Shown: positions 1 to 47,114, numbered from the stretch's first letter. The stretch is DNA of 64,000 bases from Vicinamibacterales bacterium (GCA_963664545.2 OY761475.2:3679608-3743607); one strand, 5' to 3'. The notes: generated by a model from the sequence alone, not told the origin. Numbers and translations: made by a program.

Positions 1-968
1 CAGGCCCGCCAAGTGGTGAACACCTCGTGGGCGCCGTCGAGGTCGGGGGCGCTCTCGTCGGTGACGCACCCGAGGTCTTCCAGGACCGACCGGCCGCCCT
101 CGAGGACGGCCAGCACCTCGGGCTCCACCGGCAGGCCGCCGAGGTCGGGCGACCAGCCGACACGGACGCCGGCGGGGTCGCGTGCGAGGGTGCCGCCCGT
201 GGCGACGCGGGGCACCGTCAGCGACAGCGGTGCCCGCGGATCGGGGCCGGCGATGGCGTCGAACAGCAGGGCCGCGTCCCCAACGGTGCGGGCCATCGGG
301 CCGTGGATGTGGAACGAGAACCACGGCGCGGCGCTGGGCCAGCGCGGCACGCGGCCCGACGAGGGACGGAACCCGACGACGTTGCAGAAGCTGGCGGGGT
401 TGCGCAGCGAACCGCCGAAGTCGCTGCCGTCGGCGATCGGCACCATGCCGGTGGCGAGGGCGACGGCCGCCCCGCCGCTGCTGCCGCCGCAGGTCTTCGT
501 CGGGTCCCAGGGGTTGCGGGTCGCGCCGAACACCTCGTTGAAGGTCTGCGAGCCGGCCCCGAGCTCCGGGGTGTTGGTCTTGCCGACGGTGATGGCACCC
601 GCCCGCCGCTCGCGCTCGACGATGAGCGCGGTCTCGTCGGGCACATGGTGCTCGAAGGCGCGGCTGCCGAACGTGGTGCGGATGCCCGCGGTGACGAACA
701 GGTCCTTGTGCGCGACGGGCAGGCCGTGCAGGGGGCCGACCTCGCGGCCCGCCGCGAGGGCCGCGTCGGCGGCGTCGGCCGCGTCGAGGGCGGCGCCGGC
801 GACGCAGGTGACGATGGCGTTGACGCGGGGGTTGATGCGCTCGTAGCGGGCGAGGTGCGCCTGCATGACCTCGCGCGCCGAGACCGCCCGGCTTCGGATC
901 AACTCCGCGATCCGGCGCGCCGTCAGGTCGCAGAGGTCGCCAGTTGGGTTGGAGGTGCTGTCGGGCAT
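1..968 (-). CDS. Amidase (amidase-signature family), 3' end beyond the window edge
   Basis: Not in the ORF track because it is open at the edge. Minus-strand translation from ATG 968-966 gives MPDSTSNPTGDLCDLTARRIAELIRSRAVSAREVMQAHL...LHGLPVAHKDLF...GKTNTPELGAGSQTFN...KTCGGSSGGAAVALATGMVPIADGSDFGGSLRNPASFCNVVGFRPS. This carries the GGSSGG amidase signature. Confidence 0.85.
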   Translation of the reverse strand, partial: MPDSTSNPTGDLCDLTARRIAELIRSRAVSAREVMQAHLARYERINPRVNAIVTCVAGAALDAADAADAALAAGREVGPLHGLPVAHKDLFVTAGIRTTFGSRAFEHHVPDETALIVERERRAGAITVGKTNTPELGAGSQTFNEVFGATRNPWDPTKTCGGSSGGAAVALATGMVPIADGSDFGGSLRNPASFCNVVGFRPSSGRVPRWPSAAPWFSFHIHGPMARTVGDAALLFDAIAGPDPRAPLSLTVPRVATGGTLARDPAGVRVGWSPDLGGLPVEPEVLAVLEGGRSVLEDLGCVTDESAPDLDGAHEVFTTWRA

Positions 969-1310
969 CGGCGAGCCAGTGTACACGCCCGGCTCTCGGA
1001 ACTCTCCGGGGTCTGGCTGTCGATGCTGTCGATGTAGCGCCCGCGCCGCACGGACGGGTGGGGCACGAGCGGGCTACGGAGACGCCGGCGGGTGGGAAGG
1101 CCGCATCTCGGTCTGGATCGGCCCGGCCGCCGGTCCACCCGGCCGATCCACGGCATCGGCGTTCGTGCCCCCCCGCGCCGAGCGGCACCGCTCCCGCCGC
1201 CGGGGGGGACGCTCACGGCGGCGGCCCGCCGGCCACACCGTGACGCGCTATGATCAGTCCCGCGACCATCATGGGGAACCGATCGATCCCGCGAGACGAG
1301 GAGTCGCCCG

Positions 1311-1835
1311 ATGCTCGACACGCATGCAATCGCCCGGTCGTTGACCGCGGCCGACTTCACGCCCGCCCAGGCGGACGCCCTCACCGACGCCCTCCGGGAG
1401 GTCACGGAGGTGGGCGACCACGTCACATCGGACCAGTTCAAGGCCGGTCAAGCCGAGGTCCGAACCGAGATCGCCGAACTGCGGGCCGAACAACGGACTC
1501 AGGTTGCCGAAGTCCGGAGCGAGATCGCCGAACTGCGGGCTGAACAGCGGACCCAAGTTGCCGAAGTCCGGAGCGAGATCGCCGAGGTCCGAACCGAGAT
1601 CGCAGGCCTGGACACACGGCTCTCAACCCAGATTGCCGAGGTCCGGACCGAGATCGCAAACCTGGACACACGGCTCTCAACCGAGATCGCCGGTGTCCGC
1701 ACCGAGATCGCCGGCGTCCGCACCGAGATTGCGAGCCTTGAAACCAGGCTCATCCGCTGGATGGTCGGGACGGTGATCGCGACGGCGGCGCTGACGGTCG
1801 GGATCCTGCGGTTGATGGCCGGATCGGGCGGGTAG
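1311..1835 (+). CDS. DUF1640-like coiled-coil protein with C-terminal membrane anchor
   Basis: 174-aa ORF. The N-terminus LDTHAIARSLTAADFTPAQADALTDALREV resembles DUF1640 proteins. A heptad-repeat body follows, then a C-terminal hydrophobic helix WMVGTVIATAALTVGILRLM. Confidence 0.7.
   Translation: MLDTHAIARSLTAADFTPAQADALTDALREVTEVGDHVTSDQFKAGQAEVRTEIAELRAEQRTQVAEVRSEIAELRAEQRTQVAEVRSEIAEVRTEIAGLDTRLSTQIAEVRTEIANLDTRLSTEIAGVRTEIAGVRTEIASLETRLIRWMVGTVIATAALTVGILRLMAGSGG
1452..1730 (+). repeat. Nested in-frame tandem repeats inside the DUF1640-like gene
   Basis: The base unit is 21 bp (gccgaggtccgaaccgagatc, encoding AEVRTEI). A 54-bp unit occurs at 1473-1526 and 1527-1580. A second 54-bp unit occurs at 1581-1634 and 1635-1688. 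Two further 21-bp units lie at 1689-1730. Confidence 0.85.
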
Positions 1836-1882
1836 AGACACATCGAACGCCTGAGCCGTCGGGAACCCGGCGCGGCGTCCTA

Positions 1883-2476
1883 CTACGATCGCGCGGTGCC
1901 GTTCGAGCCCGGCCGGCGCGGCTCTCCCTGCCACGCCGACACCCAGGCGGTGCCGAGCCGCGCCCAGGCGCCGGCGGCGTGGGCCGCCCACAGGGTGGGC
2001 TGCAGGGTCCAGTGGGCGACGCGGGCCGGGCCGGTCTCGCGCCGGACGTAGGCGACGGCCTGCTTCGGCGGCGACAGCACCGCCTCGCCCACCAGCACCT
2101 CCTCGCGGTCGCCGTTGACGCACACGGTCTTCAGCCGCACCCGGTTGCGGTCCTCCAGCCGTTCCACGACCTCAACGCGCGCGGTGATGCGGTCGCCGAA
2201 GTAGACGGGCCGCGTGAACTTGATCTGCTGGCTGACGTAGATGCAGCCGGGGCCCGGTAGCTTCATGCCCAGCACCGCCGAGACGAGGCCCGCCGTCCAC
2301 ATGCCGGGCACGATGGGCTTCTCGAACCGCGTCGAGGCGGCGTACTCGTGGTCCTGGTGAATGGGGTTGTGGTCGCCGATCGAGTCGATGAACTCGGCCA
2401 CGTCCCCGGGGGAGGCCACGCGGGTCGTCTCGGCCGTGTCGCCGACGGCCATGTCCTTCAGGGGGTGTCCTCGCAT
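1883..2476 (-). CDS. phaJ: MaoC-like (R)-specific enoyl-CoA hydratase (hot-dog fold)
   Basis: Motif FIDSIGDHNPIHQDHEYAASTRFEKPIVPGMW is typical of MaoC dehydratases. It is the last gene of the co-directional PHA cluster. The start (M1 or M9) is uncertain. A Trp/Ala-rich extension of about 45 aa sits at the C-terminus. Confidence 0.75.
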   Translation of the reverse strand: MRGHPLKDMAVGDTAETTRVASPGDVAEFIDSIGDHNPIHQDHEYAASTRFEKPIVPGMWTAGLVSAVLGMKLPGPGCIYVSQQIKFTRPVYFGDRITARVEVVERLEDRNRVRLKTVCVNGDREEVLVGEAVLSPPKQAVAYVRRETGPARVAHWTLQPTLWAAHAAGAWARLGTAWVSAWQGEPRRPGSNGTARS

Positions 2477-2604
2477 CCGTCCGGTCCGTCTCCGTCGCGC
2501 CGCTCGTCAGCGATGCCGTCGTCGTCCGCGCCGGTGCCGCCAGACGCCCGACGCGCGTCCGCGTCCCGCGGCGCCGGCAGGCATGATGTCCGCGTCGGCC
2601 GCCG

Positions 2605-3579
2605 TCAAGCCTGACGCTTCCGCGTCCTCCGCGCGGTGCCGGTTCCGGTCTTCCCGGTACCGCCTCCGGTCTTCGTCGTGCTCCGGCTGGTCTTCGCCGC
2701 GCCGGCCGCCGTGTTGGCGGTGCCGCGGCCGGTCTTCGCGGCGGTGCGCCCGGCCTTGGCGGCGGTGCCACCCGTCTTCGCGGCGGGGCTACGTGTCGTC
2801 CCGCCGGTCTTCCCGTCGGCAGGCCGCCGCTTAGAACCGCCGGTTTCCGGCGGCGGGGCGGTGGGACGGTTCCGAAGATCTTCGATCTTGTCCTCCAGTG
2901 CCCCGAGCCGGCCTTCCAGGCCAGTCATCCGCGGGCTGTTCCAGATGTCCCCGAGTTCGCTCTTCAGCGCCCCGATCTGATCCTCCATGCCCGCCATCCG
3001 TGGGCTGTTCCGCAGGCTATCGATCTTGCCTTCCAGCGCCCCGACCCGGCTCTCCAGGCCCGTCACCCGCGGGTTGTCCCCAAGGCCTTCGAGCTTGTCC
3101 TCCAGCCCTTCGAGCCGGTCTTCGAGGTCCATAAGCTGCCGCGACAGGCCGACGACTTGCTCGCGCGACGGGAGGCCCACGGCGTCGATGGCGGCCTTGC
3201 CGGAGCGCTCCACCGCCTCGCGCGCCTTGCCCTGCACGGTCAGGAACTGGTCGAGGGTCTTGCCGAGGGCCTCGGCGAACGCCTCGGTGCCCATCGCCCG
3301 CTCCAGGGCCTGGCTCCACGCCGCGATCCAGTCGTCGAGGAACCGCTTCCACTGCGCGAGCAGTTGCGGGTCGACGGGTCCGGCCCCCGCGAACGGGGGG
3401 GCGTTCATGGGGCCGACGTTCGAGAACTGGCGCCAGAACTGCATCGGGTCCGGCGGCGGGGGGACGTGGCCCTGGCTGGCCATCTGCCGGACCGTCTTGA
3501 TCCAGGCGTCGGTGCCGGCCTGCACCTGCTTGCGCCACTGCGCGAACAGGTCGTTCGGGTCCGATGTGGTATCTGGCAT
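2605..3579 (-). CDS. phaE: PHA synthase class III subunit PhaE-like, with repeat region and basic C-terminal tail
   Basis: Lies 34 bp downstream of the class III phaC. The Trp-rich N-terminal half (FAQWRKQVQAGTDAWIK...LLAQWKRFLDDWIAAW) resembles PhaE. Three roughly 23-aa repeats follow (N(S/N)PR(M/V)xG(L/M)ExxxGALxxxIxxL). The tail is rich in K, T, G and A. Confidence 0.7.
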   Translation of the reverse strand: MPDTTSDPNDLFAQWRKQVQAGTDAWIKTVRQMASQGHVPPPPDPMQFWRQFSNVGPMNAPPFAGAGPVDPQLLAQWKRFLDDWIAAWSQALERAMGTEAFAEALGKTLDQFLTVQGKAREAVERSGKAAIDAVGLPSREQVVGLSRQLMDLEDRLEGLEDKLEGLGDNPRVTGLESRVGALEGKIDSLRNSPRMAGMEDQIGALKSELGDIWNSPRMTGLEGRLGALEDKIEDLRNRPTAPPPETGGSKRRPADGKTGGTTRSPAAKTGGTAAKAGRTAAKTGRGTANTAAGAAKTSRSTTKTGGGTGKTGTGTARRTRKRQA

Positions 3580-3612
3580 CTCAAGACTCCCGGTCTGGAG
3601 GCCGCTGCGCGC

Positions 3613-4701
3613 CTACGATCGCGCCGCGAGCCAGCCCGCCACGTGCGGCCAGCAGTCGCGCGACGCGCTCCGTCCCGCGATCAGCGAGATGTGCCCGCCG
3701 GGCAGCTCCATGTAGTCCGTGTCCCGGCTCCCGACGAGGTCGACGAGCGCCTTCACCCCGGCCGGCGGGGCGATGTTGTCGTCGCGGGCCCCGACCACGA
3801 GCAGGGGACAGGTGATGCTCCCGACGTCGACCGGCATCCCGTTGAGCTGCAGCGTGCCCTGGGCCAGCCGGTTCTCCTGGTAGAAGTCCTTGACCCACTG
3901 CCGGAAGAACTCGCCGGGGAACGGGACGTAACCGTTGGCCCACTTCTGGAGGGCCTTGTAGCCTTCGAGATAGCGGTCGTTCCAGGCGTTCCACCACAGG
4001 TTGATGCCGGTGCTCAGGTCCATGGTGGGCCGGAGCAGCTTGAAGCCGACCTGCACCATCTCGGCCGGCATCTGCCCCATCGTGTCGACAAGCTTGTCGA
4101 CGTCGAAGTAGCGGCGGTCGAGCCAGCGGCCGAACAGGCCCGCGTGCGAGAAGTCGATGGGGCCGGCGAGGTTGACGAGGTTGCGGACCGGGAAGTCGGG
4201 GTGGCTGCCGAGGAAGCTGACCGCGAGCGGCGCCCCCATGCAGTAGCCGACGACCGAGCACGCCTCGGCGTCGGCGTCGGCCAGCAGCTTCCGGCCCATG
4301 CGGGGCAGGATGCGGGTGGCGCAGTCGGCGAACGTCAGGTGGTCGTCTTCGGGGCCGAAGACCCCCCAGTCGAGCAGATAGAACGGGAACCCTTGCTCGA
4401 CCATGTAGCCGATGAAGCTGGCCTGGGGCAGGAGGTCGAAGACGGTGGGGCGGCTGATGCCGAGGTTCGGCACGAAGAGCACCGGCGTGTCGACCTTCGC
4501 CTCGCCGTCGTAGCGGTACAGGCGCGCCTTGTGCTTGCGGTAGACCTCGCGGCGGGGGCTCTGGCCGACCGCCGGCTCGTTCGACTCGGCCACGATCTCG
4601 CCGATGTTGCGCACGCGCCGGATGGTGCGCTCGATCTCGGTCTGCCAGGCCGACCAGGCGTCCTCGCCGACGGGGGTGGACTGCACCGACATGCCGGTCA
4701 T
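3613..4701 (-). CDS. phaC: Class III poly(R)-hydroxyalkanoate synthase catalytic subunit
   Basis: 362 aa, the size expected for class III/IV. Lipase box GYCMG within VVGYCMGAPLAVSF. Alpha/beta-hydrolase context with a conserved Asp/His region (VVGARDDNIAP...GGHISL). Confidence 0.9.
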   Translation of the reverse strand: MTGMSVQSTPVGEDAWSAWQTEIERTIRRVRNIGEIVAESNEPAVGQSPRREVYRKHKARLYRYDGEAKVDTPVLFVPNLGISRPTVFDLLPQASFIGYMVEQGFPFYLLDWGVFGPEDDHLTFADCATRILPRMGRKLLADADAEACSVVGYCMGAPLAVSFLGSHPDFPVRNLVNLAGPIDFSHAGLFGRWLDRRYFDVDKLVDTMGQMPAEMVQVGFKLLRPTMDLSTGINLWWNAWNDRYLEGYKALQKWANGYVPFPGEFFRQWVKDFYQENRLAQGTLQLNGMPVDVGSITCPLLVVGARDDNIAPPAGVKALVDLVGSRDTDYMELPGGHISLIAGRSASRDCWPHVAGWLAARS

Positions 4702-5666: not shown

Positions 5667-6029
5667 TCACTCTCCGGCGTCGTTCACCTTGCGGAACGAC
5701 TCGTACATCTCGACGAGCATCTCGCGCTGGCGGGCCGACAGGTAGGGGTCGCGGCGGATCGCCTCGACGGTGTCGGCGGCCCCGCCGTCCGACGGGTCGA
5801 GGATGCCGGCCTGCGCGTACAGCGTCTCCGCCGATATCTCCAGCCCGTCGGCGAGGGCCTTGAGGACGAAGCTGCTGGGGTTGCGCAGGCCGCGCTCGAT
5901 CTGGCTGAGATAGGCGTTCGAGATGCCGCACACGTCGGCGAGCTGGCGCACCGACAGGTGGCCCAGCTCGCGCTGGCGGCGGATGAACTCGCCGAGGCCG
6001 ACATCGGGACCGGAGCGCTTGACGGTCAT
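5667..6029 (-). CDS. XRE-family helix-turn-helix transcriptional regulator
   Basis: 120 aa from the internal ATG at 6029 of the 441-aa shadow-extended ORF. HTH motif LSVRQLADVCGISNAYLSQIERGLRNPS. Lies between phaB and the phasin-like gene. Confidence 0.8.
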   Translation of the reverse strand: MTVKRSGPDVGLGEFIRRQRELGHLSVRQLADVCGISNAYLSQIERGLRNPSSFVLKALADGLEISAETLYAQAGILDPSDGGAADTVEAIRRDPYLSARQREMLVEMYESFRKVNDAGE

Positions 6030-6046
6030 GCCGTTTCCCGGCTGGG

Positions 6047-6787
6047 CTACATCTCCAGGCCGCCGTTGACGGTCAGGACCGCGCCGGTGATGTACCCCGC
6101 TTCGTCCTCGAGGAGGAACCGCACGCAGCGCGCGACCTCCGACGCCTGCCCGAGGCGGCCCACGGGGATGCGGCCGATGATGGTCTCGAGGACCGGCTTG
6201 GGGACCGAGGCGACCATCTCGGTCTCGATGAACCCGGGGGCGACGCAGTTGACGGTGATGCCCTTGCGCGCGACCTCGAGGGCGAGGCTCTTGGTGAAGC
6301 CGAACTGGCCCGACTTCGACGCCGCGTAGTTCGCCTGTCCGATGTTGCCGCTCTGGCCGATGACCGAGCTGATGTTGACGATGCGCCCGCTCTGGCGCTC
6401 GACCATGTGGTTGAGCACCGCCTTGATCATGTAGAACGCGCCGGAGAGGTTCACCCTCAGCACCGCGTGCCAGTCTTCGACGGTCATCTTGCGCACCGTC
6501 TTGTCGACGTTGATGCCGGCGTTGTTCACGAGGAAGTCGATGCGTCCCTGCTGGTCGAGCACCTCCCGCACTACCCGCGAGCAGGCATCGGGCTCGGCCA
6601 CGTTGCCCTGGTGCAGCGACACCGAGCGGCCCTCGGCCCGCAGGCCGGTCGCCAGCACCTCCGCCGCCTCCGCCCCCCGGTTGTAGCCGGCCGCGACGTG
6701 GGCGCCGGCCTCGGCCAGATTCCGGGTGATGGCCGCGCCGATGCCTCGGCACCCCCCGGTGACGACGGCGACCTTTCCTGTGAACAT
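6047..6787 (-). CDS. phaB: Acetoacetyl-CoA reductase / 3-oxoacyl reductase (classical SDR)
   Basis: Start at MFTGKVAVVTGG (ATG 6787, with RBS GGAGGAG upstream). Cofactor motif TGGxRGIG, then NNAG, then catalytic YxxxK (YAASKSG). PHA cluster context. Confidence 0.85.
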   Translation of the reverse strand: MFTGKVAVVTGGCRGIGAAITRNLAEAGAHVAAGYNRGAEAAEVLATGLRAEGRSVSLHQGNVAEPDACSRVVREVLDQQGRIDFLVNNAGINVDKTVRKMTVEDWHAVLRVNLSGAFYMIKAVLNHMVERQSGRIVNISSVIGQSGNIGQANYAASKSGQFGFTKSLALEVARKGITVNCVAPGFIETEMVASVPKPVLETIIGRIPVGRLGQASEVARCVRFLLEDEAGYITGAVLTVNGGLEM

Positions 6788-7109
6788 CCTGTCTCCTCCC
6801 GTTTCCGATCGTCGGCACCCGTTGCGGGGCGCCCGCCGCGCGGCGTCGGCCCGCCGCACCCGCGGGAGGCTGCCGAAGCGTAACACGGCCGTCGAGTGAC
6901 CCGGCCGTCGCCGGGCCGGCTCGACCCGCCCTCGGGGCCGACTTGGTTACCGATGGCGACGCACCCGCCCGACCGCGTCGTTCGTCGGCCAAATGTGCCC
7001 GACTGCGGCCGCCTCAAGCCTTATCAGGCGGGTGCCCCCCGCCGATCCCCGGCGCCCGCTGGGCGCATTACAGCGTCGGACAGCGCCGGGTTTCATCACG
7101 GGCCGAGGG

Positions 7110-27224: not shown

Positions 27225-28226
27225 TCAGGACAGACGGGAGATCAGGTCGTCGGTGTCGGTGCACTCCAACAGCAGGTCGCAGGCTTCGGTGAGGCGGTCG
27301 GGGTCTTCGAGTCCGGCGACGACCGCGGCCAGCCGGTCGGTGGTGGGCGCGCCGAACTTCCGGGCGGCCAGACGAACGAGGACCTCTGCGCGTCCCTCCA
27401 AGCGGCCGGTCCAGCGGCCCGCTTCATGGGCCTGCCGCCGGTGGAGGCGCATCTGGGGGTCGTCGTCGGGCGTGGTGCCCTCGTCCTCGCCGAGCCGCCG
27501 GCCCACCCGCGTCAGGTCGGCCAGGGTGCGCGGGCTCAGGCGGCTCTCGTTCAGGGCGGCGTGGATCTGCGCGGTCGTCCAGGTGGGGAACGCGCGGCTC
27601 TCGTCGGCGATGCGGAAGCGGCCGCCGTCGAGCACGTAGATCGTCAGGCCCGGCCGCACGCGCCGGGGCCGGTTCGGCGAGGGCTCGTCGGGGGTGTCTA
27701 CCCACACCTCGGGGAACCCCCACGCCTCGTAGACCGGCAGCTTGTTGCGCCGGACGTCGGTGGTGTGATCCACTTCGACGATCACGTCCGGCAGGGGGTC
27801 CACCCCCAGCACGATGGCGGGGTCGCGGGGGCGCCAGACGCTCCGGTCCAGATAGATGGTCTGGTCGGCTACCAGCACTTGGCGCGGCCGGCCGTCCCCG
27901 TCCCGTTCTATCAGGTAGACGGCCCCGGCCAACCGGAAGCGCGACCCGCGCTCCAGGCACATGCGGGTCAGCAGCTCGCTCAGCAGGTTCGGGGCAGTCT
28001 CGTGGACGGGGCCGGCATCGCGGAGCACCCAGGCCGTCCCGGTCTCGCGCAACCAGTACTCGATGCGGCCGTCGTAGGTCCGCACGTCGTCCCACGTCGG
28101 CAGGGCTACGGGGTCGCAGCCGGGAAAGTCCCGCCCCGCGGTCGGCGTCGGCACGGCCGGCGTCGGTGCGGCCGGCCTGACGGCCCGCTGGACGCGCGCG
28201 ACAGCGGGGTGAATCATGGCGGTCAT
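27225..28226 (-). CDS. Uma2-like PD-(D/E)XK nuclease::DUF4351 fusion, copy C
   Basis: Conserved ATG (MTAMIHP; the track ORF begins 6 codons earlier). Core is conserved. The repeat segment is absent (GRLEGRAEVLV). The tail groups with copy D. Confidence 0.8.
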   Translation of the reverse strand: MTAMIHPAVARVQRAVRPAAPTPAVPTPTAGRDFPGCDPVALPTWDDVRTYDGRIEYWLRETGTAWVLRDAGPVHETAPNLLSELLTRMCLERGSRFRLAGAVYLIERDGDGRPRQVLVADQTIYLDRSVWRPRDPAIVLGVDPLPDVIVEVDHTTDVRRNKLPVYEAWGFPEVWVDTPDEPSPNRPRRVRPGLTIYVLDGGRFRIADESRAFPTWTTAQIHAALNESRLSPRTLADLTRVGRRLGEDEGTTPDDDPQMRLHRRQAHEAGRWTGRLEGRAEVLVRLAARKFGAPTTDRLAAVVAGLEDPDRLTEACDLLLECTDTDDLISRLS

Positions 28227-28619
28227 ATGCCTGCCGTCCATCATGCCACAATCGACGCGCCGGCGGGGAGCCGCAGCGAAGACGGGCGTTGCCGGTCGGT
28301 ACGGCGCTGATTCTCGCGATACCTTGCCCCGCGGGTTCTTCGGCGGCTCGAAGCGCCGCGGAGGCGCGCCGCCGCGGGCGGCGCGTGCGTCCAGCGTTGC
28401 ACCCGGCCATTTCGGGGTTGCTTCGTGCCGGCGCTATATACCGGAGCGGCCGGAGCGGGACCCGAATCCGGCGGCGGACTCGACGCGGGACCTCCGGGCA
28501 GGTCCGAGGGGCCTGAGATCGGTTGCCGGGTGGCCCGGAACTCGGTGTCTTGCCCGGACCGACGGCGCCGGCGGCGCCACGAGTGGCGGCCGGCGGAGGT
28601 CGTGTTGCGGGACCGGCTC

Positions 28620-30238: not shown

Positions 30239-31285
30239 TCAGGCCAGACGGGACAACAGGTCGTCGGCGTCGGCGCACTCCAAGAGCAGGTCGCAGGCCT
30301 CGGTGAGGCGGTCGGGGTCTTCGAGCCCGGCAAGGACCGCGGCGAGCCGGTCGGCGGTGGGCGCGCCGAACTTCTGGGCGGCCAGACGAACGAGGAGGGC
30401 GCGTTCCCGCGCGATGCCTTCGGCGCGGCCCTGCTCGAGCCCCTCGGCGTGCCCCTCCGCACGGCCGGTCCAGCGGCCCGCTTCATGGGCCCGCCGCCGG
30501 TGGAGGCGCATCTGGGGGTCGTCGTCGGGGGTGGTGCCCTCGTCTTCGCCGAGCCGCCGGCCCACCCGCGTGAGGTCGGCCAGGGTGCGCGGGCTCAGGC
30601 GGCTCTCGTTCAGTGCGGCGTGGATCTGCGCGGTCGTCCAGGTGGGGAACGCGCGGCTCTCGTCGGCGATGCGGAAGCGGCCGCCGTCGAGCACGTAGAT
30701 CGTCAGGCCCGGCCGCACGCGCCGGGGCCGGTTCGGCGAGGGCTCGTCGGGCGTGTCCACCCACACCTCGGGGAACCCCCACGCCTCGTACACCGGCAGC
30801 TTGTTGCGCCGGACGTCGGTGGTGTGATCCACTTCGACGATCACGTCCGGCAGGGGGTCCACCCCCAGCATGATGGCGGGGTCGCGCGGCCGCCAGACGC
30901 TTCGGTCGAGGTAGATGGTCTGGTCGGCGACCAGCACCTGCCGAGGCCGGCCGTCCTCGTCCCTCTCCATCAGGTAGACGGCCCCGGCCAACCGGAAGCG
31001 CGACCCGCGCTCCAGGCACATGCGGATCAGCAGCTCGCTCAGCAGGTTCGGGGCAATCTCGTGGACGGGGCCGGCGTCGCGCAGCACCCAGGCCGTCCCC
31101 GTCTCGCGCAGCCAGTACTCGATGCGCCCGTCGTAGGCCCACACGTCGTCCCAGGTCGGCAGCGAGACGGGGTCGCAGCCGGGAAAGTCCTGTTGCGCGG
31201 TCGGCGTCGGCGCGGTCGGCGTCGGCGCGGCCGGCCTGACGGCCCTTCCGGTGTGCGCGACGGGGGTGGCAATGAACGGGGCCAT
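30239..31285 (-). CDS. Uma2-like PD-(D/E)XK nuclease::DUF4351 fusion, copy D
   Basis: Conserved ATG (MAPFIATP). The core is nearly identical to copy A. The repeat segment is 12 aa. The tail groups with copy C. Confidence 0.8.
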   Translation of the reverse strand: MAPFIATPVAHTGRAVRPAAPTPTAPTPTAQQDFPGCDPVSLPTWDDVWAYDGRIEYWLRETGTAWVLRDAGPVHEIAPNLLSELLIRMCLERGSRFRLAGAVYLMERDEDGRPRQVLVADQTIYLDRSVWRPRDPAIMLGVDPLPDVIVEVDHTTDVRRNKLPVYEAWGFPEVWVDTPDEPSPNRPRRVRPGLTIYVLDGGRFRIADESRAFPTWTTAQIHAALNESRLSPRTLADLTRVGRRLGEDEGTTPDDDPQMRLHRRRAHEAGRWTGRAEGHAEGLEQGRAEGIARERALLVRLAAQKFGAPTADRLAAVLAGLEDPDRLTEACDLLLECADADDLLSRLA

Positions 31286-31377
31286 ACGGCTGTTCCCAGT
31301 ATGCCACAGCCGGCGGCCGGCCGCCGCGCGGTTGCGGCCCGGTCGCGGCTGGAGCGGTGGCGAAGCGACGCGATCAG

Positions 31378-31935
31378 CTACTGGATGACCGGGTTCACCC
31401 AGCCGGCCGGCAGCACCTTGTCGGGGTCGGGGCGGATGCTCAGGTAGGTGACGTGGTCGGGAATCGCGGTCCACCCGTGGAACACCCCGCCGGGGATGAC
31501 CACGACGTCGCCCACCGACACGTCGCGGACCTCGCCGCCCTCGGCCGTGGCCCGGTAGCTCTCGCCCACCAGCACCTGCACGATGTGGCTGTCATCGGGG
31601 ATGTCCAGGCGCTCGGTGATCGTCCCGCCGGTCATCAGGGTCCCGCTCCCCGAGACGATGTAGTAGACCTCGGTCACCAGCGTGTGGACGATGCCCCGCG
31701 CCGTCGTCCCCGTCGACTCGAGGGCGTCGCGGTGGAGGATGCCGACGGCGACGTTCGACTTGCCGATGTCGACCACCTTCACCTGGCGGTCGACCCCGCC
31801 CTCGGGGGCGTTCCTCACCGCCATGTACTCCGCCACCGTCACGTCCGTCGCGGCGGTGATCTGGGCCGCCGCGGGTGCGGCCGCGATCAGCGCGGCGGCA
31901 GGCCCCATCAAGCATCCGGGCAGTACTCTGCGCAT
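31378..31935 (-). CDS. Secreted cupin-domain protein
   Basis: 185 aa from ATG 31935 (RBS AGGAG). Signal peptide then the cupin-like GILHRD...HTLVTEVYYIVSGSGTL...GDVVVIPGGVFHGW. The 541-aa track ORF is an upstream shadow extension. Confidence 0.7.
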   Translation of the reverse strand: MRRVLPGCLMGPAAALIAAAPAAAQITAATDVTVAEYMAVRNAPEGGVDRQVKVVDIGKSNVAVGILHRDALESTGTTARGIVHTLVTEVYYIVSGSGTLMTGGTITERLDIPDDSHIVQVLVGESYRATAEGGEVRDVSVGDVVVIPGGVFHGWTAIPDHVTYLSIRPDPDKVLPAGWVNPVIQ

Positions 31936-35350: not shown

Positions 35351-35518
35351 CTCCGGCCTCCACTATACTCGGCTCGACGCCGCGGGCGGTCATCAGCCGC
35401 TGGGCAAGTGCCCAACCTTTGATGCTTGGCGGGTCTTCAACCTGGACGGGTTGCCGGAGGCGGTGCATCCGCGGGGTCGGGGTCGTCATCAGCGGCGACG
35501 GACGCACGAGGGCCGACG

Positions 35519-36091
35519 ATGGATTCGGGTGACTTCGCGGATCGGCTCCGCCGCCTGCGCGGGGAGCCGGACCCGCGCCGCCGCCGGCTGGCCATGCTCG
35601 CACTGCTCACGGCCCGGCTCGCGCCGCAGGGCATCGAGCCGATCCTGGTGGGGGGGGGCGCCCTGGAGTTCTACACCGCCGGCGGCTACGCGACCGGCGA
35701 TGTGGACCTGGCCCTGCCGTCGGGGCCCGAGGTCGACGCCGCGTTCGCCGCCCTGGGGTTCGAGAAGGAGGGGCGGCTCTGGCATCACGCCGACCTCGAT
35801 CTGTTCTTCGAGGCGCCGGCGCCGGCCGGACTCCCGGGCGAGGACGCCCCGCGGACGGAGGTCGCCGTCGACGGCCTCCCCGTGGTGGTCATCGGCGTCG
35901 AGGACCTGCTCATCGACCGCCTCCGCGCCTGGGTGCACTGGCAGAGCGACGAGGACGGACGCTGGACCCGACGGCTCGCGAAGCTCTACGCGCACCGGCT
36001 GGACTGGGGCTATCTGCGGACGCGGACGAGGGACGTTCCCGAAGAAGCCGAGGCCCTGCGGCGGGTCGAGCAAGAGGCGCGCCGGCCATGA
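35519..36091 (+). CDS. Nucleotidyltransferase-fold protein (hypothetical)
   Basis: Start MDSGDFADRLRRL (ATG 35519). Contains ILVGGGALEFYTAGGYATGDVDLAL, which fits the minimal NTase G-x(9-13)-DxD pattern. Confidence 0.5.
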   Translation: MDSGDFADRLRRLRGEPDPRRRRLAMLALLTARLAPQGIEPILVGGGALEFYTAGGYATGDVDLALPSGPEVDAAFAALGFEKEGRLWHHADLDLFFEAPAPAGLPGEDAPRTEVAVDGLPVVVIGVEDLLIDRLRAWVHWQSDEDGRWTRRLAKLYAHRLDWGYLRTRTRDVPEEAEALRRVEQEARRP

Positions 36092-36294
36092 TCGACTACG
36101 ACGAGTTCCAGGCGGAGGTGCGGCGTCTCAAGCGCGAGCGCTGGGCGAAGATCCTCGCCGCCGAGCCGCCGGGCCGGGTGCCCGGGCGACGGCCGCGCGA
36201 TCCCGAGCAGGAACGCCTGCTGCTCGAGATGGACCGCGCCCGGCTGCAGCGGGAGCAGCCGTCCTTGTTGGCGCGGAAGCCGGGTTCGGACTGA
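36088..36294 (+). CDS. Small charged helical protein (68 aa), translationally coupled to the NTase-fold gene
   Basis: Its ATG overlaps the upstream TGA (ATGA at 36088-36091). Product begins MIDYDEFQAEVRRLKRERWAKIL. No recognisable domain. Confidence 0.4.
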   Translation: MIDYDEFQAEVRRLKRERWAKILAAEPPGRVPGRRPRDPEQERLLLEMDRARLQREQPSLLARKPGSD

Positions 36295-36401: not shown

Positions 36402-36779
36402 TCACTGCCGTTCGACGACGATCTCGGCGCTGCTCGGGACCGCCCCGAGCACCGTCGAGTCGCCGTCGATGTTGCCGATGACGTTCACCGCGCTCGCCGG
36501 CCGGATCTCGTCTCCGCGGCTCATGGGCGTCGGCCCCCAGAAGAGGCAGAGCGCGCTGCCGGGCGGCCAGTAGGCCACCGCCCCCTTGTCGACCGTTTCC
36601 GCGGCGTCCGGCGCCTCCGCTGCGTCGACCAGTATGGGAAAGTAGATCTCGTCGCCCCAGGTCTGTACGCGGCCGGTGATCGGCAGCGCGTCCCACACCG
36701 CGTCGGCGGTGGGCGAGTAGTTCAGCGTGGCGGTCACCGTGACGTCACCGGCGCGGATCCGAATCAGTCTGTCGCCCAT
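36402..36779 (-). CDS. Cyclophilin-like superfamily protein (DUF3830-like)
   Basis: IRIRAGDVTVTATLNYSPTADAVWDALPITGRVQTWGDEIYFPI...GAVAYWPPGSALCLFWGPTPMSRGDEIRPASAVNVIGNI matches my recollection of the DUF3830 family. Confidence 0.65.
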   Translation of the reverse strand: MGDRLIRIRAGDVTVTATLNYSPTADAVWDALPITGRVQTWGDEIYFPILVDAAEAPDAAETVDKGAVAYWPPGSALCLFWGPTPMSRGDEIRPASAVNVIGNIDGDSTVLGAVPSSAEIVVERQ

Positions 36780-36860: not shown

Positions 36861-37055
36861 TCATCGGGCCTTCCGCGGTCGACGCCTCGGAATAGGGCGG
36901 AGTCCCTTTTCGCTGCCGCCCAGAGCCGCGAGGCGGCGTGCGCTCTCGCGTGCGATCAACACGTCCAGTCCGTGCTCTACAAGGGCCGTCTCGTCCTGGA
37001 TGCCGGTCAGTCGCGTGGCTTCCCGCAGCAGGTCGTCGTCGATGTCGAGCGTCAT
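36861..37055 (-). CDS. VapB-type antitoxin-like protein (64 aa), no cognate PIN gene adjacent
   Basis: Start MTLDIDDDLLREATRLTGIQDETALVEHGLDVLIARESARRLAALGG (ATG 37055). This is the typical VapB_antitoxin pattern (xxLDIDDxLLxEAxxLTG). Confidence 0.65.
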   Translation of the reverse strand: MTLDIDDDLLREATRLTGIQDETALVEHGLDVLIARESARRLAALGGSEKGLRPIPRRRPRKAR

Positions 37056-37158
37056 CCGCACCCGTATAGATATGCACGCAGGGATCACACCCGTCAAGGC
37101 GGTCCGCTGCCGCTCGCGGGATGTTGAGAGCGGGCGGGCACCGAGCGGCGGCGCCGCA

Positions 37159-37194
37159 TTGACATCGAATGTCCATGGGACGTACATTCGATGT
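37159..37194 (+). promoter_or_regulatory. Candidate sigma-70 promoter overlapped by a perfect 11-bp inverted repeat (operator-like)
   Basis: TTGACA (37159-37164), an 18-nt spacer, then TACATT (37183-37188). Inverted repeat acatcgaatgt (37162-37172), N11, acattcgatgt (37184-37194). Lies in the divergent region between vapB-like and the sigma-54 activator. Confidence 0.4.
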
Positions 37195-37232
37195 GCATAC
37201 GTCGTTCACGCATACGGATTCCCCTGGACACG

Positions 37233-38780
37233 ATGCCCCTCTTTCCTCCAGACGAACGCCGCGCCGTCGAGTCGGTCGCACAACTCGCCGCCTGCAACCC
37301 GTTCGTGCCCGAGTTCGTCGAGTGGGAGCGGGCGCTGCTGGGCCCGGACCACGCCGCGGACCGCTCGGTGTGGAACCTGCGCGCGCGGCCCGAGGCGGAG
37401 AACCGGGCCCTCGCGATGGTCGGCGTCATCGCCGAGCGGGCCGCGCGCGGCGCGCGGGAGCGGCTGCGCAGGCGGCCGGCCGCGGACCGCGACGAGCTGA
37501 TTCTCTACGGGCAGATCGTCGCCTACGTCCTGTTCCAGCGCTACGCGGAGCCCCTGCAGCGAACGGATCTGGACACCGCGCGTACGCCCGGACGGGCGGC
37601 CTGCTACCGGCCGTTCCGCCGGGATCTCGAGCACTTCCTCGCGCTGCCGGGGCTGCGGCTGCCGGGGCGCGTCGACCCCGCGCACCTGTTCGCCTGCTGC
37701 CACCAGCTTGTCCGCGCCTTCCGCCTCATCTACCGCCACATCATCGGCGCGTCGCGCCCCGCGGCGCAGCTTCGCGCGGCGGTGTGGCAGTCGATCTTCA
37801 CCCACGACCTGCGCCGCTACTGGCGGTCCCTGTACGACCGGATGCACGACATCACCACCCTCATCACCGGCCCCTCCGGCACCGGGAAGGAGCTGGTGGC
37901 GCGCGCCATCGGCCTGTCGCGCTACGTGCCGTTCGATTCCCGGCGCGAGGCGTTCGCCGCGACCCTCGACGGCGCGTTCCACACCCTGAACCTGTCGGCC
38001 CTGTCGCCCACCCTCATCGAGTCGGAGCTGTTCGGCCACCGCAAGGGCGCCTTCACCGGGGCGGTCCAGGACCGGGTGGGCTGGCTCGAATCGTGCCCGG
38101 CCATGGGCACAGTGCTCCTCGACGAGGTCGGCGAGATCGACGCGTCGATCCAGGTCAAGCTGCTGCGGGTCCTTCAGACGCGCGAGTTCCAGCGCATCGG
38201 CGAGACCACGACCCGCGAGTTCAAGGGGAAGCTCATCGCCGCGACCAACCGCGACCTCGCGGCGGAGATGCGCGCCGGGCGTTTCCGGGAGGACCTGTAC
38301 TACCGCCTCTGCTCGGACCTCGTCGAGACCCCGTCGCTGCGCGACCAGCTCCGCGACGCCCCCGGCGAGCTCCGCAACCTCGTGCTCTTCGTCGGCGAGC
38401 GCGTCGTCGGCGAGGCCGGCGCCCCCGAGCTCGCCGACGAGGTCATGGCGTGCATCGACCGCGACCTCGGCCCCGACTACCCCTGGCCCGGGAACGTGCG
38501 CGAGCTCGAGCAGTGCGTCCGCAACGTGCTGGTCCGCAAACGCTACCGTCCCCCGGCGGTGCCGGCGCAAGGGGCCGACGACGGCGTGGCGGCGGCCCTC
38601 CGGGACGGCGGTCTCACCGCCCGCGAGCTGCTCGGCCGCTACTGCACGACCGTCTACGCCCGCACCGGCAGCTACCAGGAGACCGCGCGCCGGCTCGCCC
38701 TCGATCGGCGCACCGTGAAGCAGCACGTCGACCGCGATCTGCTCGAGAGACTGCGCGGCGGCCCTCCGGCGACCCCCTGA
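37233..38780 (+). CDS. Sigma-54-dependent transcriptional activator (bEBP) with an unrecognised N-terminal sensory region
   Basis: AAA+ sigma-54 interaction domain: [23 protein letters not shown] (GAFTGA loop), [19 protein letters not shown]-terminal Fis-type HTH is [20 protein letters not shown]. The start is set at [10 protein letters not shown] because the candidate promoter would exclude ATG 37191. Confidence 0.85.
38562..38780 (+). repeat. Left copy of the roughly 0.22-kb direct repeat (intact 3' end of the bEBP gene)
   Basis: ccggcgcaaggggccgacgacggcgtggcggcggccctccgggacggcgg...cagctaccaggagaccgcgcgccggctcgccctcgatcggcgcaccgtgaagcagcacgtcgac...tga recurs at 42355-42571. Confidence 0.9.
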
Positions 38781-38903
38781 CCTTCCCGCTCATCCCGCAG
38801 GCGCGCGGCTGGATCCAAGGTGCTCGCGCCGGACGCGGCCCGAAAAGGCGGAGCGTCGGTGACCGCCGCGGCGGGCGGTGGCGCACGTGAGCCGACCACG
38901 CTG

Positions 38904-40436
38904 TCAGCAAAGAAGGTCCCGCATCATCGCGTCGACGGTTCCTGCCGAATCGTCCACGTCGAATGGGTAGCAGGCCATCTCCAGGTCTTGGTCATCGACG
39001 AACCGGAAGTTGATGGTCTCCCGAAACGCCGTCGTCCTCGGATAGACGAGGACCACCCGCCGGCAGCCGTATCTCTTCCCGTAGGCGAAGAGCTGGTACG
39101 CGTCGTCCTGACCGACGCCATGATTCGGTGCGCCGGGGTCGAGACGCTTCCACTTCGCATCCAGGATGAATCGGACCCGCCCCCTCTCGGTCAGGACGAT
39201 GTCCGGCTTCAGCCGAAAAGCGTCCAGGCCGGCGTGGTCCGTTGCCAGAGGTAGCACCGGCCCTTGGGCGCGCACCGTGAAGCGCCGCTGGTGTCGGCGG
39301 ACGGCGGCGGTGACGAAGTCCTCGAATACCTCCTCCATCGGAAACAGCAGCGCCCGGTTGACGTGCGGGCCGGCGAAGGTGGCGAGACCGTGGCCGAACA
39401 GGAACAACCGCACCCAGGGCATCACGGCGTCGTAATGCCGCATCGAACGGTCCACGCGATGCCGCGCCCAGTCGTCGTCCGGGTTCGTGGAGGGCGGCAC
39501 GTCGGAGAAGAGGATGCGCAACTGGTGGACCCGCTGTCGGTTCGCGGGATGACGCACGGCACGCGTCAGCCGCCGCAACGCGAGATGGATCAGACGGTTG
39601 GCGGGCCGGTCCGCGGTGAACTCGTCGTAGCCCACGTAGAACCGTGAGCGGTCGACAAGATTCTCTCGGACGTGCGGCGGGAACAGGATGCGCCCGCGCA
39701 GGCAGGGGAGATTCGCCTCCCGCGTTCGGTACGCCCTGGCGAGGCCTCGACGGGTCAGCAGGATGACGCTCGTCAGGAACAGGTGGACGAAGGCTTCGAG
39801 CATGTCGAAGCGGCGGACTGAACGGATGCCGGCGGCGTCGAGCTGCGCTTGCCCGAGACCGCGCCAGTCTCGCAGCATGGTCAGGAAGACCCTGCGGGTG
39901 TCTTCGTGCAGGCCTGTCGACGAGTCGGCGGAGCCGCGCGCCTGTTCGCCGGTAGAGCTCTTCGGCCGCGCCCTCGTCGATGTCGATGTCGACGAGTCGG
40001 CGGAGCCGCTCGCCGGCTCGCCAGGGTATCCGGCGGGCCATCTCGTCTCGTCCGTGACGTTCGCGAGGTCGATCTTCGGCAGGATTTCGACTACCGTTCC
40101 GCGGCGCGTCTCGATGATTCCGACGTAGTTCTGGGCGTAGAGACGGCGGTTCCGGAGCGCCAGGACGGACCGCCACTCGGCTTCGGTGCCGGCCGGTTGC
40201 GCGAGGGCGAATCTCTCGAGCTCGCGCCGCTCGTTCTCATCGAGCCCGGTCAGTTCTTCGTACTCTCGAACGACCATCTTGCGCCGCGCGCCGCGGCGCG
40301 GACGCCCCGCCAGCGCATCGGTGAGGGAGGCTGGTTGGCTCACGGGTGCGCTTGGTCGTCCGGGTGGGTATCGGCCGCTCGCGTCACGGGGGTCGGCGGG
40401 GTCGGCGGGTCGTTCGTGCCCGCTCACGGTCGGCAT
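38904..40436 (-). CDS. mcrC: McrC-family PD-(D/E)XK endonuclease subunit
   Basis: YVGIIETRRGTVVEILPKI near the N-terminus. C-terminal nuclease motif PDIVLTERGRVRFILDAKWKRL...DAYQLFAYG. ATG 40436 lies 2 nt after the mcrB stop. The Pro/Arg-rich first 53 aa may not be translated (alternative M54 at 40277). A low-complexity insert is encoded by a 21-bp direct repeat at 39917-39937 and 39989-40009. Confidence 0.85.
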   Translation of the reverse strand: MPTVSGHERPADPADPRDASGRYPPGRPSAPVSQPASLTDALAGRPRRGARRKMVVREYEELTGLDENERRELERFALAQPAGTEAEWRSVLALRNRRLYAQNYVGIIETRRGTVVEILPKIDLANVTDETRWPAGYPGEPASGSADSSTSTSTRARPKSSTGEQARGSADSSTGLHEDTRRVFLTMLRDWRGLGQAQLDAAGIRSVRRFDMLEAFVHLFLTSVILLTRRGLARAYRTREANLPCLRGRILFPPHVRENLVDRSRFYVGYDEFTADRPANRLIHLALRRLTRAVRHPANRQRVHQLRILFSDVPPSTNPDDDWARHRVDRSMRHYDAVMPWVRLFLFGHGLATFAGPHVNRALLFPMEEVFEDFVTAAVRRHQRRFTVRAQGPVLPLATDHAGLDAFRLKPDIVLTERGRVRFILDAKWKRLDPGAPNHGVGQDDAYQLFAYGKRYGCRRVVLVYPRTTAFRETINFRFVDDQDLEMACYPFDVDDSAGTVDAMMRDLLC

Positions 40437-40438
40437 GG

Positions 40439-42160
<1,722 letters not shown>

Positions 42161-42354
42161 CGCAGTGTCGGCGCGTCCCCTTTGGTGGCGGTCGTCTCGA
42201 GTATCCTCGTCTTCGTCTGTCGGTTCGACCTGCCGTACGCGACAGTCCGGTCCGATCCGGGGCTCCCCCGCCGGTGATGGGAAGCGCGCCCCATCAACCC
42301 GCCGCGCCGGCGCTTGCGTCCGATTCGCGTGCGGTCGGCGAGATCGACGCGTTA

Positions 42355-42571
42355 CCGGCGCAGCCGGCCGATGACGGCGTGGCGGCGGCCCTCCGGGACG
42401 GCGGCCTCACCGCCCCCGCGAGCTGCTCGGCTGCACGACCGCTACGCCCGCACCGGCAGCTACCAGGAGACCGCGCGCCGGCTCGTCCTCGACCGGCGCA
42501 CCGTGAAGCAGCACGTCGATCGCGATCGACTCGAGAGACTGCGCGGCGGCCGTCCGGCGGCATCCTCCTGA
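42355..42571 (+). repeat. Right copy of the direct repeat: decayed relic of the bEBP 3' end
   Basis: Roughly 90% identical to 38562-38780. Small indels (for example caccgcccccgcgag versus caccgcccgcgag, and ctcggctgcacgaccgctacg versus ctcggccgctactgcacgaccgtctacg) break the frame. The distal part still encodes [35 protein letters not shown]. Confidence 0.85.
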
Positions 42572-42771
42572 CCGCCCGGCTCTACCCGGACGAACGTAAC
42601 CCCGTTGCCTGCTGGGCCAGAGAACCGGCATCGTCCCCGCATCCTGGACATCGGCTGAACAGGAGTAGAGCATTGAATGTCTGCCTCCGGCGTGGTCCCT
42701 TGGCGGCACCCAGGCGGTGTTTCGTCGGCAACCCGCTGACAGAAAGGCATTTACAGGTTCTGAAGGCCACT

Positions 42772-42787
42772 TGGCATTCCATCTGCA
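42772..42787 (+). promoter_or_regulatory. Sigma-54 (-24/-12) promoter-like element
   Basis: TGGCATTCCATCTGCA versus consensus TGGCACG-N4-TTGCW. The GG and GC dinucleotides have the canonical spacing. Lies in a locally AT-richer intergenic stretch 200 bp after the relic bEBP end. A strong RBS (GGGGAGGAAG) and ATG at 42877 follow. Confidence 0.35.
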
Positions 42788-43053
42788 CTTCTGATGCGGC
42801 GGGCACGGACGTGCCGTCACGCTCCGGCCCTCGCCGTCGGCATCCGGGGGGCCACGGCCACGGGGAGGAAGACGCCATGTCGGGATCTAGATCGAGCACG
42901 ACGCCCTTGGTTCTGATTGCCGCCCTGCTGGCCAACGGTTGGTTGCGCGAGCATGAATCACGGCCGCTCGCAGGTGGTCCTGGTGGAATCGGAGCCGCCC
43001 CTCGTCGTCGGTGCGCCGCCTGTGCGCCCGTCGCTTCGCCGGGGTTGGGCCGA

Positions 43054-46679: not shown

Positions 46680-47114
46680 TCAGGCGTCCGGGAGGTTCAG
46701 GACTTCCACGTCGAGACCCTCCACGAGCCGGAAGTGCCGCTCGTCGGACGAACCGACCAGCACCGGGAACCCCAGGTGCACCGCGGTCGCGGCCACGGCG
46801 AGGTCGTTGGTCGGAATGAGCGTTCCGCCGCGGCGCAGGCGCGCGAACAGACGCGCCCAGGCGTCCGCGATCGCGGCATCGAACTCAACGACCGGCACCC
46901 GGACCGCCAGACCCTCCACGCGGGCCCGGCGGGCCGCGGCGCGCGCGGCGCTGTCCGCCAGGTAGACGCCCGCCAGGAGCTCGGCGTAGGCGGCCGCGGG
47001 CAGCACCGCGCGTTCGCCCTCCAGTCGGCCGATCACGTCGGTCCAGGCCGCGCCGGTCTTCCCTGGGTGCCGCTCGGCCGCGACGAGCGCGCTGGTGTCG
47101 ACTACGACGCCCAT
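46680..47114 (-). CDS. vapC: PIN-domain toxin VapC
   Basis: [11 protein letters not shown] at the N-terminus, then [16 protein letters not shown] and SSDERHF, which are the PIN acidic residues. Overlaps the upstream antitoxin by 13 nt. Confidence 0.8.

Follow-up and report, generated by a model that had tools for sequence, protein, structure and literature searches.

INTRODUCTION

Restriction genes have been reported to enter genomes by 'insertion with long target duplication' (Nobusato et al. 2000, Gene 259:99; Furuta et al. 2010, NAR 38:2428, PMC2853133). In this pattern restriction genes of types I-IV, unaccompanied by a mobility gene, lie between direct repeats of 26-423 bp, which are single copy in empty-site genomes and often extend across a start or stop codon; 'double-strand breakage' has been suggested as the mechanism (PMC2853133). 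The published Type IV example is mcrA, not mcrBC (PMC2853133). The mobility of McrBC has been inferred from phylogeny and from linkage to mobility genes, and the N-terminal recognition domain of McrB is variable (Fukuda et al. 2008, PMC2614495). Here we describe an mcrBC cassette that sits between two direct copies of the 3' end of a sigma-54 activator gene (bEBP) in a member of the Vicinamibacterales (Acidobacteriota). The window, that is the whole stretch analysed, comprises 64,000 nucleotides of one strand (GCA_963664545.2 OY761475.2:3679608-3743607); relatives are labelled L001 and so on.

How does this locus compare with the published cases? Furuta et al. (2010) asked for one or more restriction genes with no other mobility gene, an insert of <20 kb, a direct repeat of >30 bp and a single-copy empty site, and the mcrBC locus agrees with this definition in gene content, insert size, repeat length and empty site. 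The repeat spans the end of a neighbouring gene, which stays intact, and the layout in two relatives, L003 and L001, in which about 150 bp extend over two convergent gene ends, fits the pattern closely. Unlike the published cases, the repeat ends here are not the insertion boundaries, 227 bp being left of at least 1.65 kb, the insert holds remnants of other genes and the flanks are different haplotypes. Membership of the pattern holds, the condition on the repeat ends being implicit in the name and no formal criterion. To the known pattern the locus adds a series of decay stages and the reciprocal loss of regulator copies. We propose, with moderate confidence, that mcrBC once lay between two complete copies of bEBP, that the 227-bp repeat is the final vestige of this whole-gene duplication, and that the duplication arose by recombination through bEBP.

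RESULTS AND DISCUSSION

The second repeat copy is part of a composite relic

Copies A and B of the repeat (Table 1) have the same orientation and start 3.79 kb apart, and pairwise alignment, a repeat finder and blastn agree on them. They are 88.8% identical over 232 aligned columns (E 3e-77) and, when only substitutions are counted, 93.5% identical over the ungapped columns (14 differences); a 35-nt core has exactly two occurrences in the 64-kb window and none in any of 100 shuffles. Copy A shows a separate 3-nt deletion, which is in frame, and copy B carries indels of +2, -6 and -1 nt that destroy the reading frame and terminates at a TGA (42569-42571). The ends of the repeat are not sharp in the pairwise alignment. 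According to the open reading frame (ORF) and Pfam results, the only coding genes between the copies are mcrC and mcrB, both on the minus strand; the cassette has a GC content of 0.62-0.72 compared with 0.70-0.76 in the flanks, and a third-position GC content (GC3) of 0.83 compared with 0.93-0.97 elsewhere. Neither an integrase nor a transposase was found between the repeats or in the equivalent cassettes of L081, L085 and L086. All of this agrees with an earlier note on the same DNA, which had described a bEBP 3' end recurring in the same orientation at about 90% identity, frame-breaking indels and a separate TGA in the second copy, only mcrC and mcrB on the opposite strand in between, a lower GC content in parts of mcrC and no integrase or recombinase between the repeats.

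That note regarded copy B as the displaced original end of the gene, a terminal relic. Copy B is indeed the decaying copy, in its ancestral context and contiguous with native downstream DNA and GDH; it is not terminal, as further fragments lie upstream of it. Proceeding rightwards from the cassette, a piece of a cyclophilin-like gene (Cyclo), a piece of intergenic DNA, a 20-mer from the middle of bEBP and the end of bEBP follow one another, collinear with copy B. The 25-nt Cyclo fragment matches L081 3620-3644 at every position and the interior of the L001-L012 Cyclo genes at 92-96%, and the junction between cassette and Cyclo' (the second, right-hand Cyclo gene) recurs in L081 and L086. The intergenic fragment corresponds to L081 4389-4427, a segment between VapB and an intact right-hand copy of bEBP (bEBP-R), and its L086 counterpart is contiguous with the right-hand VapB. 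L086 has the 20-mer at the same place as the window, and its counterpart of copy B (88% identity) is free of the window-specific indels. Piece by piece, the right side of the window is collinear with L081: 38887-42294 corresponds to 228-3644 and 42294-42336 to 4389-4430, the 20-mer to the Walker-B region, 42349-42573 to 5963-6192 and 42638-43000 to 6442-6802, after which GDH follows. The DNA beyond copy B is 71-77% identical to the regions downstream of bEBP in L001, L006 and L026, and 75-88% identical to those of L081 and L086. The interval 42270-42573 should be annotated as a composite pseudogene.

Two bEBP genes flanked mcrBC in the clade ancestor

At least 10 related species share the order PQQ-dehydrogenase 1 - nucleotidyltransferase (NTase) - s68 - Cyclo - VapB - (region X, ~5 kb) - bEBP - GDH - PQQ-dehydrogenase 2, and each of more than 10 other species has a single bEBP at the locus. 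A search for empty sites, suggested in the earlier note, found GDH directly after bEBP in seven relatives (L002, L003, L004, L005, L007, L008 and L012), and both repeat copies align to the lone bEBP 3' end of these genomes. The window, L081, L086 and L085 form a tight clade, with bEBP, GDH and mcrC 94-98% identical, and in all four the cassette has a copy of bEBP on its left. In L081 (ENA ERZ21830300) a bEBP-L relic of ~80 nt is followed by the cassette, the 5' part of Cyclo', PIN, VapB, the intergenic segment, intact bEBP-R, PEGA genes and GDH. L086 displays Cyclo-L ... intact bEBP-L, the cassette, Cyclo', PIN, VapB and then, contiguously, the composite relic known from the window, with intergenic fragment, 20-mer, 3' end and downstream DNA; compared with the window, its flanks are 96.4% identical and its composite relic (window 42294-43000) 88.1%. 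In L085 an intact bEBP-L with spacer precedes the cassette, followed by a relic of the s68 3' end, an intact Cyclo, VapB and region X. The L081 left relic (146-227) has a flank 91% identical to the sequence upstream of L086 bEBP-L, and shares with window bEBP-L derived bases that L081 bEBP-R and all other relatives lack; it is orthologous to window bEBP-L.

Because the window contains a composite relic, L086 and L081 preserve intermediates and L081 carries the reciprocal relic on the left, the ancestor of this clade carried two full bEBP genes around mcrBC, and its lineages lost different copies. The duplication extended over at least 1.65 kb, the whole gene, and probably over at least 2.6 kb. 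The window shares with L086 two internal deletions in bEBP-R, of ~1.1 kb and 0.41 kb, the second at a GCGTCG microhomology. Later, and in the window only, ~0.75 kb with Cyclo'-PIN-VapB disappeared and three small frame-breaking indels arose. L081 has experienced the opposite outcome, having kept bEBP-R and reduced bEBP-L to ~80 nt. The ancestral order was s68 ... Cyclo-L - (VapB) - bEBP-L - mcrC - mcrB - Cyclo' - PIN - VapB - bEBP-R - downstream DNA - GDH, in which one bEBP copy was redundant and was lost in each lineage. The sequences document this layout and its decay directly.

The left and right copies of bEBP are 94-97% identical, equal to the identity between genomes of the clade, compared with 83% for Cyclo and 75% for VapB. 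Strong left-right similarity is restricted to bEBP, from about 37135-37155 to ~25 nt beyond the stop codon. Cyclo-L of the window is 95% identical to L086 Cyclo-L and only 83% to the right-hand Cyclo' fragments of L081 and L086. The right-side Cyclo and VapB genes group with L005 and L002 (90-94%), those on the right side of L085 with L007, L083 and L003, and window VapB-L, at most 75% identical to every other VapB at the locus, groups with none of them. The left spacer behind window bEBP-L begins with ~25 nt that align with the native bEBP-downstream sequence of relatives; its remainder finds the best match in the downstream region of L008 (z 4.5) and can hardly be aligned with the DNA that follows copy B (z 2.3). 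A spacer is missing in L081 and L086, where the stop codon of bEBP immediately adjoins the cassette.

Inside the repeat, no other sequence is closer to copy A or to copy B than the other copy. The signal is a mosaic, in which A and B agree against L081 bEBP-R at 16 sites and B agrees with L081 bEBP-R against A at 8. This pattern argues that gene conversion has acted within the repeat.

A model for the origin of the repeat

By which route did the second bEBP arise? Homologous recombination with bEBP as the crossover segment is the most likely one. A fragment from a close relative, comprising mcrBC - Cyclo' - PIN - VapB - bEBP and about 100 nt of downstream DNA, would have entered the resident bEBP either as a circle, in a Campbell-type event, or via an equivalent unequal exchange between haplotypes. 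The outcome would be two bEBP copies, with resident DNA outside and donor DNA inside, and no integrase would be needed. The outer flanks of the locus are collinear with the conserved synteny and the inner ones, the spacer and Cyclo'-PIN-VapB, belong to other haplotypes, a picture blurred by later turnover and gene conversion. Resident outer flanks, foreign-haplotype inner flanks and bEBP as the only strong homology together suggest the topology of a single crossover through bEBP. No recombinase was found in the Pfam-scanned ORFs within ~10 kb to the left and ~13 kb to the right of the cassette (on the right up to 47 kb and again from 50.6 kb), and a tRNA search and an Rfam search gave no match to a tRNA, tmRNA or non-coding RNA att site. 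Since the proposed route requires no recombinase in cis, it fits the absence of an integrase, transposase, tRNA or Rfam element.

The locus resembles a Campbell-type integration in that two direct copies bracket heterologous DNA with no site-specific recombinase in cis. As in homology-driven capture at hotspots, resident DNA would lie outside and incoming DNA inside, and the repeats would later permit deletion or gene conversion. It differs in that the homologous segment is a chromosomal regulator gene, with no known circular form or vector, and in that deletions and further exchanges are superimposed on an event that is itself old (3-5% divergence). Several observations weigh against the recombination route. 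The circular intermediate is hypothetical. The sequence upstream of bEBP-L differs between the window, L086/L081 and L085, and the right flank of L085 is yet another haplotype, with an s68 relic as in L003 and L001; these differences call for extra recombination or turnover events under any model. The mosaic signal in copies A and B requires gene conversion, which blurs the distinction between donor and recipient, and the evidence from spacer homology amounts to about 100 nt only. Finally, a genome in which both bEBP copies are demonstrably intact was not seen among the relatives, the L085 contig ending too soon.

The same duplication could have arisen within one genome, as a tandem repeat of a segment running from mcrBC to bEBP or as a replicative 'insertion with long target duplication' on bEBP, after which the duplicate cassette was lost, the flanking accessory genes turned over and one bEBP eroded. 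We regard this as rather unlikely, if less so than any other rival. It accounts equally well for the 94-97% identity of left and right bEBP, a level also found between genomes of the clade. Inside the repeat A and B are closest to one another, direct repeats would permit the clean loss of a cassette copy, and a second duplication of ~150 bp in L003, L001 and L085 preserves both neighbouring genes, as in the published cases. However, left and right Cyclo and VapB share only 75-83% identity and represent different haplotypes, the sequences after copies A and B are non-homologous past about 25 nt, the DNA upstream of bEBP-L is never of the right-hand intergenic type with VapB, and the s68-Cyclo junction of the window or L086 holds no remnant of a first cassette. 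Far less probable is that the relic is an old, independent bEBP paralog that became a neighbour of mcrBC by chance, unrelated to the arrival of the cassette. In favour of a paralog, the second copy used to be a complete gene, with an upstream region and VapBC-Cyclo neighbours of its own; yet the left and right copies form one clade at 94-97%, whereas orthologs of other species reach 85-89%, the locus carries a lone bEBP in all other related species, and in four genomes the two copies precisely bracket the cassette.

According to the main reading of the earlier note, a 3.6-kb element had integrated into the 3' end of bEBP, bringing a substitute for the gene end and pushing the original 0.22 kb aside. 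Such an integration would have been site-specific, by an integrase that was later lost or acted in trans. A duplicated gene end with the intact copy on the gene and the broken one distal is the classical picture of such an event, the GC3 of the cassette lies below that of the host, empty sites exist, and integrase islands at the 3' ends of tRNA, tmRNA or protein genes likewise have a gene-end direct repeat flanking foreign DNA of lower GC content. This explanation is nonetheless already contradicted, and we give it hardly any credence. The relic extends upstream into Walker-B, intergenic and Cyclo fragments, and L086 and L081 provide whole-gene intermediates and a reciprocal outcome; the duplication once comprised the whole of bEBP and more, and thus exceeds the repeat. 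Copy B comes from a longer gene, a finding that the note itself had named as speaking against its reading. Unlike an integrase island, the locus has no integrase, no tRNA and no sharp att core at a repeat end, and its element ends are not constant, the cassette junctions varying by genome. The cassette has co-diverged with its hosts, and copies elsewhere (L100, L101; see below) lack flanking repeats. Nor do the repeats give exact boundaries for a minimal portable module, as had been claimed: a bEBP-downstream tail of ~100 nt and the Cyclo and intergenic remnants lie inside them, and the core is shorter (Table 1). Among the three options that the note left for an element without a recombinase, capture by homologous recombination fits best.

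Age and movement of the cassette

In mcrC and the AAA+ part of mcrB, divergence mirrors that of GDH and bEBP; only the N-terminal part of mcrB is more diverged. This parallel with the host markers argues that the cassette settled long ago and has since diverged together with its hosts, without a recent move within this genome group, rather than being a recent arrival at the end of bEBP. mcrBC has stood next to Cyclo since before these species split. Distant McrBC copies, 75-78% identical (McrC 78%), occur in L100 (7794-11449) and L101 (8110-11314), two genomes of 7-9 Mb. They occupy a different conserved position there, with a Peripla_BP_6 gene on one side and an FAA-hydrolase gene on the other. 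No flanking repeats surround these copies, and the idea that a flanking duplication is an intrinsic mark of cassette insertion was rejected on that ground. The vicinity of the L100 copy contains BrxL, several toxin-antitoxin pairs and an insertion sequence. The second location, the kind of copy that the note had proposed to look for, indicates that the mcrBC module relocates over longer timescales. A metagenome scan yielded distant copies only, together with one 2-kb fragment of the Cyclo-side layout.

In L001, L003 and L087 the cassette lies directly beside Cyclo, with no bEBP copy on its left. From L001 and L003 two independent hops were initially inferred, one to a site by Cyclo and one to a site by bEBP. 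We dropped this reading because the L085 cassette joins a bEBP-L left flank with an L003-type right junction and because Cyclo remnants still adjoin the cassette of the window, L081 and L086. Another scheme, in which one ancient duplication spanned s68 to bEBP and deletion gave rise to the L003 type, is disfavoured, as the 3-5% divergence between left and right bEBP fits the young clade and not the deeper split. The window s68-Cyclo junction was also considered as the scar of a former cassette, and this was rejected; its 105-bp intergenic region is no more than a longer variant of the 73-bp form that L002, L004 and L001 carry.

A relic of the s68 3' end is found to the right of the cassette in L003, L001 and L085, and a relic of the Cyclo 3' end to its left in L003. 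The second flanking duplication thus comprises ~150 bp, running from the 3' end of s68 through the intergenic region into the 3' end of Cyclo, and leaves both convergent genes intact; it is located at 128-278 and 3612-3764 in L003 (~87% identical) and at ~3700-3830 in L001, and the same s68 relic occupies 5664-5740 of L085 (reverse complement). It may itself be the stump of a longer duplication.

Implications for long target duplications

What are the implications of a decayed regulator gene beside a restriction operon? A short gene-end repeat around a defence cassette is not necessarily an att-like footprint or the true cassette edge; it can be an eroded whole-gene duplicate. The sister genomes provide an exceptionally clear record of stepwise decay around a restriction operon, with reciprocal loss of the regulator copies. 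For the long target duplications that have been described at restriction genes since 2000, the locus suggests a concrete origin that can be tested. We speculate, tentatively, that these duplications might generally arise in two steps, capture of donor DNA through a whole neighbouring gene and subsequent erosion of the redundant copy to a gene-end repeat; this generalization is possible rather than probable. If it is true, deletions would halt at the edges of genes protected by selection, which would explain why the repeats so often span start or stop codons, and the locus would represent the first natural time series of capture followed by erosion, from L085/L081 through L086 to the window.

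Features of the cassette and its flanks

The features of the locus are compiled in Table 1.

Table 1. Coordinates of the mcrBC cassette, the repeat copies and the adjoining genes and remnants in the window
Feature	Position	Strand	Evidence or remarks
Cyclo-L, cyclophilin-like gene, intact	36402..36779	-	PF04126, E 6.9e-39
VapB antitoxin gene, left copy (VapB-L), orphan	36861..37187	-	PF09957
bEBP-L, sigma-54 activator, intact	37191..38780	+	PF00158, E 5e-47; GAFTGA and C-terminal helix-turn-helix visible
Repeat copy A	38556..38782	+	Linker and helix-turn-helix-coding 3' end of intact bEBP
Left spacer, tail of bEBP-downstream sequence on left copy	38783..38886	+	Window and L085 only
mcrBC cassette core	38887..42269 (about)	-	Cross-genome comparison
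mcrC, PD-(D/E)xK nuclease subunit, intact ORF	38904..40436	-	PF10117, E 2.6e-76; PDB 6ut5_G, E 1.3e-8
mcrB, AAA+ GTPase subunit, intact ORF	40439..42160	-	AAA_5 PF07728, E 3.4e-16; PDB 6ut3, E 4.4e-52; 6hz4, E 3.3e-31
Cyclo-R fragment, 25 nt, codes '...ALPITG'	42270..42294	-	Interior of second cyclophilin-like gene
VapB-bEBP intergenic fragment, right-hand copy, 40 nt	42294..42333	+	90% to L081 4389-4427
bEBP-R remnant 20-mer, Walker-B region	42333..42352	+	Exact match to 38126-38145, E 4e-6
Repeat copy B	42349..42573	+	3' end of decayed bEBP-R; contiguous with upstream fragments and native downstream DNA
Native bEBP-downstream DNA, PEGA-gene-region remnant, into GDH	42574..43013	+	Homology to relatives

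The mcrBC genes form a predicted intact type IV restriction operon, the start of mcrC lying immediately downstream, 2 nt past the mcrB stop. Like the modification-dependent systems of E. coli and T. gammatolerans, the locus has an mcrB-mcrC operon, a McrB with a Walker A motif (GPPGTGKT) and the NTADRS signature (MNTADRS), a PF10117 McrC and matches to solved structures; the McrC translation displays the PD...D-x-K motif as PDIVL...ILDAKWK. It differs in that the N-terminal ~220 amino acids (aa) of this McrB, presumably the DNA-recognition part, match no Pfam family. PADLOC gave no match to a specific McrBC model, McrB matching only generic REase_II models, and an exact-protein look-up of the window McrC returned no match, the database entry having a different start.

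The boundaries of the cassette core lie 17 nt past the stop codon of mcrC and ~107 nt upstream of the start codon of mcrB. It is 93.6% identical to L081 (228-3644), 93.2% to L085 and 91.1% to L086, and 84-92% to L001, L003 and L087, where the left flank is different. Its junction sequences fall into window/L085, L081/L086, L003 and L001/L087 types. Within the cassette, the N-terminal part of mcrB (window 41100-42150) is 81-95% identical among seven cassettes, compared with 89-98% for the AAA+ part and mcrC, and is mosaic; this divergence suggests diversification or domain exchange of target specificity. Inside a Ser/Thr-rich low-complexity insert of mcrC, 36 nt are directly repeated at a spacing of 72 nt (39915-39950 and 39987-40022, 92% identity), and when the window is aligned with the L001, L003 and L087 cassettes, the alignments are interrupted precisely there, at 39952-39988. 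Gene calling splits both mcrB and mcrC of L081 (245-3465) in two (117+223 aa and 167+396 aa), owing either to real pseudogenization or to indel errors of long-read assembly, and L087 mcrB is cut to 167 aa.

The true start of bEBP-L is likely near 37233, because its homologs are 514-516 aa long; the gene is 94-96% identical to L081 bEBP-R, L086 bEBP-L and L085 bEBP-L, and 85-89% to other species. Homology to all relatives stops at one point upstream of it (window ~37154-37159), beyond which three kinds of left context are found, in the window, in L086/L081 and in L085, and the promoter contains an inverted repeat, ATCGAATGT...ACATTCGAT. The bEBP promoter is a hotspot of recombination or turnover. 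Region X, the ~5-kb block between VapB and bEBP in most relatives (L083 1962-6595, L084 4451-9440), carries glycosyltransferases, with MptA_B-family, GT2, DUF547, 311-aa and 120-aa genes, and is missing from the window, L005 and L081. A 154-aa gene upstream of bEBP-L in L085 was considered as the end of region X and rejected, there being no similarity. The PIN/VapC gene between Cyclo and VapB is present in L002, L005, L081 and L086 and missing in the window.

On the right, ~0.44 kb separate copy B from GDH. They are what remains of a block of PEGA-domain genes, which follows bEBP in L001, L006, L026, L081 (6683-7777), L083 and L086 (1402-6623); the L086 block also holds a DDE_Tnp_1 transposase.

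The region between the two PQQ-dehydrogenase genes represents a hypervariable accessory and defence hotspot in Vicinamibacterales. In the window these paralogous genes (41% aa identity) bracket two Uma2-family putative restriction endonuclease genes upstream (27225-28433 and 30239-31591), VapB, mcrBC and, downstream, a PIN-domain (VapC-like) gene (46680-47114), an arrangement with the look of a defence and toxin-antitoxin hotspot. A DUF2204 nucleotidyltransferase gene with a weak AbiEii match in PADLOC (E 8e-6) overlaps a 68-aa ORF (35426-36294); the two may constitute a toxin-antitoxin or abortive-infection pair, which is kept in most relatives and missing in L005.

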